In this document: in pieces, positions 10,624 to 21,134 of the stretch
Position numbering within the stretch: the stretch's first letter is position 1
How the letters are laid out: each line of letters opens with the position of its first letter
Source of the DNA: a phage
Sequence record: PV730302.1
Direction: 5' to 3' (one strand)
DNA length: 64,000 nucleotides
Made by a program: the position numbers and the translations under genes
Notes under the pieces: generated by a model
The model's input: the letters and a program-made list of their open reading frames with translations, nothing else
What the model was told of the DNA's origin: nothing
The model's database searches: none

Positions 10624-10658
10624 AATAATTCCTCTTTAATAACCTTATTTATGCCAGA

Positions 10659-10676
10659 AAAGGCCCTAAGGCCTTT
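10659..10676 (-). other. GC-rich stem-loop between small ORF and alt start
   Basis: aaaggcc-ctaa-ggccttt inverted repeat; minus-strand RNA hairpin followed by a short U tract; possible weak terminator or RNA stability element. Confidence 0.35.
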
Positions 10677-10677
10677 A

Positions 10678-10860
10678 TTAAAGTACTAACAGCGTACGGT
10701 ACACTTCAAATTTAGGACCCTTTTCATAGCGGTCGAAATTATCTTTAAAATCGGCGAACGCGATTTCATTTTCAAATTCAAGGACAATTTGGGACACTGC
10801 AGTGGAGACATCCCCACCTTCTTTATATCCAATAACCACGGTTTCTAAATAAGCTTTCAT
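10678..10860 (-). CDS. hypothetical protein
   Basis: Track ORF 10678..10902 overlaps the ligase 3' end; internal ATG at 10858-10860 (MKAYLETVV...) sits just after the ligase stop. Confidence 0.35.
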   Translation of the reverse strand: MKAYLETVVIGYKEGGDVSTAVSQIVLEFENEIAFADFKDNFDRYEKGPKFEVYRTLLVL

Positions 10861-10861
10861 A

Positions 10862-12385
10862 TTATAGTCCAGTTTGAGACCAATCACCAAATACATCTTC
10901 AAATGTATCAGCTTCTGTTTTATCGAAACGCCAACCTTTAATAATTGGAAGGAAAATACCTACGGTATCAGTACGTCCTTTAGAGTGAACCCAACCATTA
11001 CATTCACAGTCGGCAATACGGCCAATCAATTTACCTTCACGAGCTTGTTTCATAAGAAGTTCACGGTCTAAATCAGGACGGTCTTCCAGTGGAATCAATA
11101 CCTTTTTACCTGATTTATCTTTCTTATGGGTAGTATCTTTAAAGCCTGAGCCACAGTCACTTGTAATTCGACGGCAATGTGATACTAATTCAACACCACC
11201 AAGTTTGTTAGGGTCCTTCGAGTGTTCATAATAACCTACCACTTCTAAAGCGATATCTATTACTTCTTTGAACTTGATAAGATTCTTAGAACGGCGATTT
11301 TCCCAGTAGGAGTCCATGTTCTTAAGGATAATACCTTCCAGACCTTGGTCGACATATTTTTTATAAACGACTTTAGCTTCTTCAAGATTATTAACCCACT
11401 GGTTTTCGATAGCTTCAACACGCGTTGTGCCATGCAATACGACATTATGAGCAACCATAAGTTCTAAGGCTGTAAAGCGTACATCATACTTATCGCCTTT
11501 AATTTTACCTTCGGAATATACGACATCCAATGGGACATAATCCCATGCCTGTAATACCATACCAGCGGCTTCAGTAGCCGAAATAGTTCCTTGAAGAGCT
11601 TTGTTAGCCAAGCCATTTGACGTAGAACGATCGGCGACAGTTTGGAATTCCTTAGCCTTACTTAATTCAGGAAGTTCCTCGTCAAACATACTAAACAAAT
11701 CATTAGATGCTTTAGGTTCTACCTTAGGAGTATGGTAAACTAATTCGCCATCAATCATAACGCCATTAGGATGGCGTTGTCGAGCTTCTTCGGTCATGGC
11801 CATTAATTCAGCAGCCAAAAGATTAAGCCCTTGATATTCATTACCACCACGAGTAAGGAATGTCACACCATCGTTACGAACTTCGGCAAAACAACGAGCA
11901 CCATCAGCTTTTAATTGAGCAAACGCTGGCCATTTAATATTTTTCTTAATCAAAGCTTCATCATAAGAACTCGCCAACATCTGCGGTTGTTCAGGGATTA
12001 AACCTTTCCAAACCTTGTTAGCAATAGAAATCGATGCACCACATTCAAGGTCGCGCATCATTACACGACGTAATACCTCGGCATCCGGGGCCTTAGCATC
12101 AGCAATGATTTGAGCCAGTTCTTCAATAGCCGCATTACCCGTAATCTTACGTGTGGCTAATGTGAATTCAGCGAAATCAAGAAGGTCTTCAAGAGTAATC
12201 ATACCAAAGGATTGAGATGTAAATCCAGGTTCTGGCCACTTTTTAATACCGTAGTTCAGACGACGGGTATAAGCCATACGATAAACACGTTTCAGAAGCT
12301 CATTGTCCTTTTCACGAGCAATAATGGCTTCTTTAGCTTTAGTAGAATCAATAGCAGCAATTTCGTTTAAAATATCTAAAATCAT
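10862..12385 (-). CDS. 30: ATP-dependent DNA ligase
   Basis: Track ORF to 12424; start set at M14 (MILDILNEIAAI...), which matches the T4 ligase N-terminus as recalled; KADGARC adenylation motif (KxDG); C-terminal ...FEDVFGDW..TGL. Confidence 0.9.
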   Translation of the reverse strand: MILDILNEIAAIDSTKAKEAIIAREKDNELLKRVYRMAYTRRLNYGIKKWPEPGFTSQSFGMITLEDLLDFAEFTLATRKITGNAAIEELAQIIADAKAPDAEVLRRVMMRDLECGASISIANKVWKGLIPEQPQMLASSYDEALIKKNIKWPAFAQLKADGARCFAEVRNDGVTFLTRGGNEYQGLNLLAAELMAMTEEARQRHPNGVMIDGELVYHTPKVEPKASNDLFSMFDEELPELSKAKEFQTVADRSTSNGLANKALQGTISATEAAGMVLQAWDYVPLDVVYSEGKIKGDKYDVRFTALELMVAHNVVLHGTTRVEAIENQWVNNLEEAKVVYKKYVDQGLEGIILKNMDSYWENRRSKNLIKFKEVIDIALEVVGYYEHSKDPNKLGGVELVSHCRRITSDCGSGFKDTTHKKDKSGKKVLIPLEDRPDLDRELLMKQAREGKLIGRIADCECNGWVHSKGRTDTVGIFLPIIKGWRFDKTEADTFEDVFGDWSQTGL

Positions 12386-12395
12386 AATCACCTCA

Positions 12396-12674
12396 TTAGT
12401 CATGGATTCTATTATAAGCCACATCAGCCAAAAGCAAGTCTAATCGCTTATGATAAGAGAACACAAATCTCATTCGCCCATCAGATTTGAACTTGGACAT
12501 AAAGTGGACATAAATGAATCCCTGTTCGACGCATTCGCGCCAAACAGGATGGTCTTTAGCCGGATTTACATCAAATGAGTAATCATGATTCACATGACGA
12601 ATAAACTGGTTTACATGACCATAATCCATTGTAGTGGTAGGACCATAGTCTGAAATTGTATGAACTACAAACAT
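12396..12674 (-). CDS. hypothetical protein (T4 30.1 position)
   Basis: Track ORF 12396..12707; probable start at internal ATG 12672-12674 just after the upstream stop. Confidence 0.35.
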   Translation of the reverse strand: MFVVHTISDYGPTTTMDYGHVNQFIRHVNHDYSFDVNPAKDHPVWRECVEQGFIYVHFMSKFKSDGRMRFVFSYHKRLDLLLADVAYNRIHD

Positions 12675-12675
12675 A

Positions 12676-13314
12676 TTAACCTCGAGCAATCCATTCAACT
12701 GCGGCATTATTACGAAGGGATTCGATGGCTGCGATATCGTCCCATGAATTAACCTTTACGGCTAAATTAGGTTTAAAGTCACGTTCACCACGAGCTAACC
12801 AATAAACTTGGATATCCATGAGAACATTAGATGCAGCATCACAGTGGTGAGCCAAATCATCAACATAAAACTTAATACGTTTACCGTACGTATTTTTAGC
12901 TCTTATGAAGAGGTCTTCTTTTGATTCTGAATGACCACACATCAGAATCTCCTTGAATGCGCCAGGGAACAAAGCATTCAAATTGAATTGTCTATTCAGC
13001 AGGGCATCAATTGAGTCGCCTAGCGCAGTCACGGCTACAAAATCGAAGTCTTTTTTGAGCTTGTTGATATGTTTTAATGCGTCCATGTAAGGAGACAGAT
13101 AACGAATAAAATCTGACTGATTGTACTTCTCGATTAAACGAGCGCCTAATTCATTATCACAATTAAACAGCTCGCCTGGAGATAAGAAACGTTCGTCCTG
13201 AATCATATTCAAAATATGTTCTAAAGGCAAATTATATTTCTGTGCGAAATAAGGCAAGCCGGACTGCCAACTTAAACATACTCCATCGATATCTGTTAAG
13301 ATAACTGGTTTCAT
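12676..13314 (-). CDS. HAD-superfamily hydrolase-like protein (T4 30.2 position)
   Basis: N-terminal ILTDIDGV (HAD motif I DxDG), later VTALG, RAK and YVDDL motifs in HAD order. Confidence 0.5.
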   Translation of the reverse strand: MKPVILTDIDGVCLSWQSGLPYFAQKYNLPLEHILNMIQDERFLSPGELFNCDNELGARLIEKYNQSDFIRYLSPYMDALKHINKLKKDFDFVAVTALGDSIDALLNRQFNLNALFPGAFKEILMCGHSESKEDLFIRAKNTYGKRIKFYVDDLAHHCDAASNVLMDIQVYWLARGERDFKPNLAVKVNSWDDIAAIESLRNNAAVEWIARG

Positions 13315-13778
13315 AATAAATCTCTCAATTTGTTTAGGATGTCGATAAACTCTTTTTCAGTTAGTATTGTATCACATTCTGTAAGGTGGCTTGCCATAGA
13401 ATGCTTTAAAACTTTGCCCTTTGTAGCTTGTAACGCATCGCGAAATCCTGGGTTTTGGATCGCTGCTTCAAAATAAGCATTTTCGTACAACTCTTTCCAT
13501 GCTGTAGAGTATCTTGAAATGGGAGTTCCAAGCCAGAACAGCGTCCCGCGGTCCGCAGCTCTAGCATAAGCTCTTCCAGTTTGTTGTGCGGCCAGACCGG
13601 ACATCCCAAATATACGTTTTTGTTGTTCAACATTTTTCACCTTACACCCTTGGAGGAATCCTTCGAGTCCTCCAAATTGGATACCATCCATAACGAAAGG
13701 CCATTTAGCAAAGTTACTTAATGCGCATGATGGCCATGGGAAGTTGCTTCTAATTTCTAATTCAGACATCTTTGACAC
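13311..13778 (-). CDS. NADAR/YbiA-like protein (T4 30.3 position)
   Basis: 155 aa; FPW..ALSNF...PF..DG..F...E.F.Q..K pattern resembles NADAR (DUF1768) N-terminal signature. Recognition from memory, not searched. Confidence 0.4.
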   Translation of the reverse strand: MSKMSELEIRSNFPWPSCALSNFAKWPFVMDGIQFGGLEGFLQGCKVKNVEQQKRIFGMSGLAAQQTGRAYARAADRGTLFWLGTPISRYSTAWKELYENAYFEAAIQNPGFRDALQATKGKVLKHSMASHLTECDTILTEKEFIDILNKLRDLL

Positions 13779-15704: not shown

Positions 15705-15734
15705 AGAAACAAAAATGGGACTCCGAAGAGTCCC
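15705..15734 (-). terminator. Rho-independent terminator (GGGACUC-UUCG-GAGUCCC + U-rich tail)
   Basis: 7-bp GC-rich stem with UUCG tetraloop on the minus-strand transcript followed by AUUUUUGUUUCU; begins 5 nt after the stop of the small ORF 15740..15901. Confidence 0.6.
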
Positions 15735-15739
15735 ATAAC

Positions 15740-15901
15740 TTATGCCTGAGGCTTACCAAAGCAAGCAGCATCTGCACGCAATACTGCACGAGCACGAGCT
15801 TGAAGCTTATCAACTACCTGATTGATACGCTTGTTGGACGCACGCTTGTAACCAGCGCGTTTAGAGGTACCGTCAACTACTTTAACTTCTTTCTTAGCCA
15901 T
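15740..15901 (-). CDS. small basic protein, 53 aa (absent from ORF track, under 60 aa)
   Basis: Hand translation: MAKKEVKVVDGTSKRAGYKRASNKRINQVVDKLQARARAVLRADAACFGKPQA; clean ATG..TAA ORF with a dedicated terminator immediately downstream; RBS weak (GAGA). Confidence 0.4.
   Translation of the reverse strand: MAKKEVKVVDGTSKRAGYKRASNKRINQVVDKLQARARAVLRADAACFGKPQA

Positions 15902-19896: not shown

Positions 19897-19897
<1 letters not shown>
19700..19897 (-). CDS. hypothetical protein
   Basis: Track ORF 19700..19927; ATG at 19895-19897 (MNNIEKIF...) overlaps the pseT stop (TTAATGA arrangement). Confidence 0.4.

Positions 19898-21134
<1,237 letters not shown>

Follow-up and report, generated by a model that had tools for sequence, protein, structure and literature searches.

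A Dhakavirus-type ortholog of T4 gene 30.3 is predicted to encode an anti-DarT1 NADAR enzyme and adjoins a gene for a separate predicted HAD phosphatase

The closest described counterpart of the locus analyzed here is gene 30.3 of phage T4, which was mapped as the T-even determinant of resistance to DarTG1 and renamed adfN, for anti-DarT factor NADAR (PMC11825919, Nat Commun 2025). In that study, adfN deletion mutants of T4 and T2 formed no plaques on DarTG1 hosts, ectopic adfN expression let RB69 plaque again on such hosts, and the DarTG1 sensitivity of RB69 was explained by a frameshift that removes the last 15 residues of the protein, which make up its C-terminal helix (PMC11825919). Purified AdfN removed ADP-ribose from DNA, the E36A and K43A substitutions each weakened it, and the thymidine modifier DarTG2 was not countered (PMC11825919). 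In vitro, gp30.3 was likewise active on guanine-ADPr DNA and inactive on thymine-ADPr DNA (PMC11125620, Toxins 2024). In uninfected cells, the protein gives no rescue from DarT1 (PMC11125620; likewise for AdfN(T4), PMC11825919), and full AdfN(T4) function needs an "as-yet unknown factor" of Tevenvirinae (PMC11825919). A T4 transposon screen found 30.3 to be dispensable on K-12, where 27 of its 28 TA sites were hit, while in the presence of DarTG1 its mean reads dropped from 261.0 to 0.7 (log2FC -7.25, q=0) and those of 61.2 (adfA) did not change significantly (log2FC -0.34; preprint 10.1101/2025.11.20.689424). The role of adfN as an anti-DarTG1 NADAR is therefore already known from work published in 2024-2025. 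The wider family includes the antitoxins of DarT1 operons and E. coli YbiA, which has been tied to the hydrolysis of riboflavin intermediates and to a LexA-controlled operon; phage NADARs, for which "gp30.3 proteins" is a second name, carry His in place of the Glu of YbiA and the Asp of DarT1-linked NADARs (PMC11125620).

We analyzed a 64,000-nucleotide stretch of phage DNA (sequence record PV730302.1; hereafter the window), which is a segment of a T-even genome. Between 10.8 and 14.2 kb it shares 97% identity with Escherichia phages QL01, Bp7, WG01, and MX01, the first of which is classed as a Dhakavirus within the subfamily Tevenvirinae, and the source is a T-even phage nearest to Dhakavirus QL01/JS98. 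The minus-strand gene order is that of T4 (30.8, 30.7, ... 30.4, 30.3, 30.2, 30.1, 30 (DNA ligase), alt.1, alt), and both of the ORFs to which an earlier, sequence-only reading had drawn attention (12676..13314 and 13311..13778) are present on the minus strand. That reading had also described the pair as adjacent to DNA ligase; the three genes do belong to one tight cluster, but the gene 30.1 homolog separates 30.2 from ligase (Table 1). The junction sequences show how tightly genes 30.4-30.3-30.2-30.1-30 follow one another, each junction being an overlap or a gap of only 1-10 nt. Genes 30.4 and 30.3 share 8 nt, as in T4, the overlap between 30.3 and 30.2 is identical in kind to the one at T4 coordinates 128307-128310, a single nucleotide separates the 30.2 stop from the 30.1 ATG, and the ligase ATG lies 8 nt past the 30.1 stop, preceded by a GAGGTG ribosome-binding site. 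Since these junctions leave no space for internal promoters or terminators, we infer that the five genes are almost certainly cotranscribed. Mechanical ORF calls were too long at three starts, and from T4 alignments and ribosome-binding sites we judged the true positions to be 12385 for ligase (not 12424), 12674 for 30.1 (not 12707), and 13769 for adfN (not 13778). In the case of adfN, the ORF list begins at a GTG that would yield 155 aa, and the start is probably the downstream ATG because it agrees both with the T4 gp30.3 alignment (MSELEIR start) and with a T4-like 8-nt overlap with 30.4.

Table 1. Coordinates of the genes and junctions discussed, numbered along the window.
Feature	Coordinates	Strand	Basis or remark
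Homolog of gene 30.4 with no Pfam family, 71 aa	13762..13977	-	phrog_2042 1e-35; last 8 nt overlap adfN start
adfN, NADAR-family DNA ADP-ribosylglycohydrolase (predicted), 152 aa	13311..13769	-	T4 gp30.3 ortholog
Out-of-frame ORF inside adfN, T4 30.3' equivalent, 75 codons	13406..13633	-	same offset as T4 30.3'
adfN stop/30.2 start overlap, ATGA, 4 nt	13311..13314	-	junction sequence 'ttattATGAaacca'
Gene 30.2 ortholog, HAD-superfamily phosphatase (predicted), helical C1 cap, 212 aa	12676..13314	-	
Gene 30.1 homolog (DUF3045) between 30.2 and ligase	12396..12674	-	PF11243 5.9e-16; 43% identity to T4 gp30.1
ATP-dependent DNA ligase (gene 30)	10862..12385	-	PF01068 1.6e-23; junction sequence
Alt ADP-ribosyltransferase paralog 1, 694 aa	8539..10623	-	PF03496 4.9e-36
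Alt ADP-ribosyltransferase paralog 2, 708 aa	6412..8538	-	PF03496 1.4e-17, split in two stretches

The window gp30.3 aligns with its T4 counterpart without gaps over 152 of 152 residues, with 21 substitutions (86% identity), and matches the Pfam family Phage_30_3 (PF08010) with E 8.3e-65 and 217.2 bits, where the cut-off is 36, covering profile positions 2-138 of 138. Among 78 gp30.3 homologs, the invariant residues are P13, L17-S18-N19-F20, E36-G37-F38, Q40, H123, and T134-L136-T137, while K43 is at least 90% conserved; this alignment, like that of the 72 gp30.2 homologs described below, was made without T4 reference rows. E36 (13664..13662) and K43 (13643..13641) lie within an LEGFLQGCK stretch that is the same in T4 and align with the corresponding E and K of YbiA. 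The sequence-only reading had based its tentative NADAR assignment on an N-terminal pattern, and that pattern, SNF...EGFLQGCK, is indeed the NADAR motif and can be aligned with YbiA. H123 (13403..13401) is the subfamily His of phage NADARs and directly follows strand 120-122 in an AlphaFold2 model of the protein (pLDDT 93.5). The same model contains an intact C-terminal helix at residues 138-151, and the T4 gp30.3 alignment reaches the final residue. Of the checks proposed along with that assignment, profile searches and structure prediction both place the protein among NADARs rather than in an unrelated fold. A Foldseek search of the PDB returned only three meaningful matches, the three solved NADARs, namely YbiA (2b3w; E 8.7e-5, TM 0.69), the Phytophthora NADAR with ADP-ribose (PnNADAR, 8bau), and the Geobacter lovleyi NADAR (8bat; probability 0.98), with all others at E>3. 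The gp30.3 family profile had a single match among PDB sequences, again YbiA (E 0.016), with the SNF...E...Q.KF motif aligned. Sensitivity depended upon the use of profiles, as single-sequence searches of gp30.3 and gp30.2 against PDB sequences yielded only noise. Neither protein is covered by an NCBIfam model. The window gp30.3 itself did not match Pfam NADAR (PF08719) at E<=1; 23 of the 78 family members did so individually (best E 1.5e-7). Some public records also label gp30.3 homologs as YbiA/DUF1768. By sequence and by structural model, then, the ORF at 13311..13769 is assigned to the NADAR superfamily, and it is the window allele itself that displays the orthology, the predicted NADAR fold, the intact active site (E36, K43, and H123), and the intact C-terminal helix.

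The resemblance to T4 AdfN extends to the slot between 30.4 and 30.2, both gene overlaps, the three active-site residues, and the C-terminal helix; unlike T4 AdfN, the window allele has a Dhakavirus background instead of a Tequatrovirus one, and its activity is predicted. The DarG1-type NADAR antitoxins (for example, that of G. lovleyi, 8bat) share the fold and, according to the literature, the same reaction on guanine in DNA and the same DarT1-neutralizing logic. In contrast to the NADARs of DarT1 operons, the window adfN has neither a cognate toxin gene nor an N-terminal extension, and it has a His where those proteins have a catalytic Asp in the last strand. We found no DarT toxin gene beside adfN, whose neighbors are 30.4, 30.2, 30.1, and ligase, and the gene is therefore not a member of a DarT-NADAR operon but resembles an orphan antitoxin gene. 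Because the C-terminal helix is complete and E36, K43, and H123 are all retained, at 86% identity to the T4 protein, we predict that the window allele would encode a functional AdfN and that the phage would resist DarTG1. The enzymatic activity, the specificity for guanine over thymine, and the necessity and sufficiency of the gene against DarTG1 come from experiments with the T4 and T2 orthologs. For the T4 ortholog, the reversal of DarT-mediated DNA ADP-ribosylation that the sequence-only reading had envisaged is already established (PMC11825919; PMC11125620), as is protection on DarTG hosts, which it had listed as a further check (PMC11825919; Tn-seq in 10.1101/2025.11.20.689424). In the mechanism we propose, adfN would produce a stand-alone NADAR enzyme early in infection. 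The host toxin DarT1 of the DarTG1 toxin-antitoxin defense would mark phage DNA, and AdfN would hydrolyze the N-glycosidic bond between guanine in DNA and ADP-ribose, erasing the marks so that replication can proceed and serving in effect as an "orphan antitoxin". We hold this account as a whole, comprising adfN as an anti-DarT1 NADAR together with gp30.2 as a separate HAD phosphatase, with high confidence.

The HAD motifs that the sequence-only reading had recognized in the 30.2 ORF withstood closer inspection, and gp30.2 is a genuine HAD hydrolase. Motif I (DIDGV) occupies residues 8-12 (13293..13279), motif II is represented by T96 (13029..13027), motif III by K132 (12921..12919), and motif IV by D152-D153 (12861..12856). 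Across the 72 homologs, there is no variation at D8, D10, G11, K132, D152, or D153, and conservation of T96 is at least 90%, which argues that the four motifs are not chance occurrences. The second Asp of HAD motif I marks phosphatases, not dehalogenases. The protein has a Rossmannoid HAD core and a C1 cap that is helical and about 70 residues long, and it is 74% identical to T4 gp30.2 over residues 1-194; at 212 aa, it is without the variable C-terminal tail of the 278-aa T4 protein (comparison with L001, 5475..6311). Homologs of gp30.2 fall into two size classes, one of about 200-220 aa and the other of about 260-340 aa with a variable Pro/Tyr/Asn-rich C-terminal tail. Structure alone did not single out a HAD sub-family. 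By sequence, gp30.2 is closest to the NT5C-type 5'(3')-deoxyribonucleotidases (cdN/mdN; PF06941; 2jao, 3bwv), even though it has just 13-18% identity to their solved members and its only Pfam match, to NT5C, is below threshold (13.4 bits versus 24.8, E 0.074). Mouse cdN also headed the matches of the gp30.2 profile to the PDB, with the family's invariant W16 aligned to the Phe of DGVLADFESGL. NT5C was weakly matched by 10 of the 72 homologs, second to a generic Hydrolase family (13 of 72). More remote relatives on marine phage contigs hit the profile of gp30.2 at about 1e-25, and of ten that were tested, five had NT5C as their top match and one passed the NT5C gathering score over the full profile length (39.9 bits, E 5e-10). 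A GenBank record of a Klebsiella phage names a 57%-identical homolog "5' nucleotidase", and our literature search on gp30.2 found nothing, including no biochemical data for any homolog. We propose that gp30.2 would be a separate enzyme, a HAD phosphatase that depends on Mg2+ and has both a DxD catalytic motif and a helical C1 cap; the likeliest assignment, at roughly even odds, is an NT5C-like (deoxy)nucleoside-monophosphate phosphatase acting upon the nucleotide pool.

Alternatively, gp30.2 might be a DNA-end 3'-phosphatase that prepares nicks for the neighboring ligase, which we consider improbable. HAD C1-type caps enclose small substrates, whereas polynucleotide phosphatases such as T4 Pnkp are capless, and gp30.2 carries such a cap. 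Moreover, only 125 residues align, the nearest sequence family of gp30.2 is NT5C, and the phage already has pseT, which is encoded elsewhere in the window (19897..20802). T4 can do without the gene under laboratory conditions, and 30.2 insertions had no phenotype on K-12 (72 of 72 sites hit; 10.1101/2025.11.20.689424). A more specific role as a nutrient-dependent nucleotide-pool gene was unsupported, with a T4 log2FC of -0.10 for LB versus M9.

On the other side of adfN, gene 30.4 deserves comment because exactly two genes were significant genome-wide in the T4 DarTG1 transposon screen, 30.3 and 30.4, with the mean reads of the latter going from 375.9 to 108.0 (log2FC -1.79, q=0.014), and the published preprint text makes no comment on 30.4 (10.1101/2025.11.20.689424). 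Homologs of gp30.4 occur directly upstream of NADAR solely in the T-even clade (15 of 81 loci), and it is in this clade, too, that AdfN(T4) functions in full via its "as-yet unknown factor" (PMC11825919). We regard it as unlikely that gp30.4 is this T-even factor. Polarity on adfN translation is a likelier source of the 30.4 effect than a helper role of gp30.4, and it is the simplest explanation because 30.4, directly upstream of adfN, runs into the start of that gene. Against polarity, insertions in T4 30.1, directly upstream of the essential ligase, were fully tolerated in that study (21 of 21 sites), and its authors maintain that polar effects seldom occur (10.1101/2025.11.20.689424). We also inspected the out-of-frame ORF inside adfN, the frame of which is open in 12 of 13 close relatives, with the ATG kept at that codon in only 6 of the 13. 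In a codon shuffle, p was about 0.06; the evidence that this ORF is conserved more than chance would allow, or is a real gene, is weak, and a function for 30.3' is doubtful.

The similarity of gp30.3 to YbiA bears upon a further question, which is whether the protein mainly acts on small molecules, either soluble ADPr immune signals or riboflavin intermediates, with its DNA activity being secondary. YbiA (2b3w; PF08719) is the top match of gp30.3 both by structure and by sequence and shares with it the SNF...E...Q.KF motif, and phage NADARs have been proposed to prefer soluble ADPr derivatives (Iyer et al., PMC9503650). The two proteins are only 19% identical. The His that phage NADARs have in place of the catalytic Glu of YbiA, the direct in vitro de-ADP-ribosylation of DNA, and the necessity and sufficiency of the gene against DarTG1 run counter to a primarily small-molecule enzyme, and we judge this reading to be quite unlikely, though gp30.3 may have an additional small-molecule substrate.

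The sequence-only reading had further supposed that the phage carries both ADP-ribosylation writers and an eraser, all within a single early unit. Two Alt paralogs do lie downstream of adfN on the same strand, 2-6 kb away, and both Alt and AdfN are encoded; the two do not form a pair, because Alt targets host proteins, whereas AdfN removes a host-made mark from guanine in DNA. If they were a pair, the NADAR would reverse the marks that the phage's own Alt (or ModA/ModB) places on host proteins or RNA. Proximity on the same strand speaks for this idea, but the substrate described in the literature is guanine-ADPr in DNA, with no cleavage of thymine-ADPr, and our literature search turned up no report of activity on arginine-ADPr, the Alt product. 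Under DarTG1, T4 alt had a log2FC of -0.01, which is no effect (10.1101/2025.11.20.689424), and T4 30.3 was without a phenotype when DarTG1 was absent (27 of 28 TA sites tolerated). Furthermore, in many T4-like phages the NADAR gene is far from the alt/ligase block, by 55 kb in one example (L050 vs L099). Based upon the literature substrate specificity and the lack of an alt phenotype, we rejected AdfN as an eraser of Alt marks, a role that we consider very improbable. The paralogs themselves are arranged in tandem and abut without a gap, with the upstream copy being by far the better PF03496 match, while T4 has a single alt plus the remnants alt.-1 and alt.-2. The ORF at the alt.1 position (10678..10902, minus strand) matches "Phage blade protein" (PF24647, 8.8e-29), a family of recent date in Pfam, and, as called, overlaps the ligase stop region.

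As for the proposed early unit, the region's sequence suggests that alt may have a late promoter of its own rather than sharing the 30.x transcript, and we find no support for a unit common to adfN/30.2 and alt. The Alt protein is packaged into the capsid. Scans of the sequence performed no better than shuffles, either for promoters (19 versus 26 expected) or for terminators (9 versus 5.9), and the late-promoter consensus TATAAATA was not enriched. Between alt.1 and alt on the minus strand are a hairpin, AAAGGCC-TTAG-GGCCTTT, at 10676..10659 and a CATAAATA box at 10653..10646, which is 22 nt ahead of the alt ATG and has one mismatch to the T4 late-promoter consensus. A strong terminator-like hairpin, ATGGGACTC-TTCG-GAGTCCCAT followed by TTTTGTTT, is found on the minus strand at 15715..15736, between the ORF at 15740..15901 (T4 30.9 position) and the 30.8 homolog. 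It is plausible that this hairpin would form a boundary of the transcript carrying 30.8 through 30.

Lastly, we considered whether 30.2 and adfN might function together, with gp30.2 either processing the released ADP-ribose or serving as the T-even factor that AdfN needs, which would account for the ATGA-coupled pair. The overlapping stop and start codons, the neighboring positions of 30.2 and NADAR in all T-even clade loci, and the requirement of AdfN(T4) for a Tevenvirinae factor (PMC11825919) are all in keeping with such a module, but under DarTG1 the mean reads of T4 30.2 went only from 271.5 to 249.8 (log2FC -0.12, q=1, 71 TA sites), 30.2 tracks ligase in 26 of 26 loci and NADAR in only 12 of 27, and 59 of 80 NADAR loci have no 30.2 homolog within 6 kb, making it extremely unlikely. 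Put the other way, phage contigs with a gp30.3 relative had a gp30.2 relative within 6 kb in 21 of 80 cases, and 14 of these 21 were adjacent, all of them within or near the T-even clade. Ligase lies just downstream of 30.2 in 26 of 27 T4-like loci, the 27th being truncated, NADAR is close by in only 12 of 27, and in one genome the 30.2 and NADAR genes are about 55 kb apart (again L050 vs L099); thus, 30.2 travels with ligase and not with NADAR. At the whole-genome level, both genes are near-universal among T4-like phages, with 1511 public phage records containing an adfN homolog and 1448 a 30.2 homolog, at nearly equal genus breakdowns. A conserved module of HAD and NADAR genes was accordingly rejected on the gene-neighborhood counts and the T4 Tn-seq data. 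On present evidence, 30.2 stands outside the ADP-ribose pathway, and its adjacency to adfN is inherited T-even gene order.

An eraser of ADP-ribosylation does exist in T-even phages, as has already been established for T4 gp30.3 (AdfN), the first "orphan antitoxin" of a lytic phage that enzymatically reverses a toxin-antitoxin defense. Annotating the Dhakavirus-type allele as an intact adfN leads to the prediction that its phage would be resistant to DarTG1. Among the matches listed, nearly all of the adfN and 30.2 homologs are called "hypothetical protein", and the annotation of public phage records thus lags behind the adfN literature. Although we rate its chances as low, gp30.4 is a candidate for the missing co-factor of AdfN. 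The neighboring HAD gene 30.2, by contrast, can be separated from the ADP-ribose story as a conserved, ligase-linked, and ordinary gene of T4-like phages.
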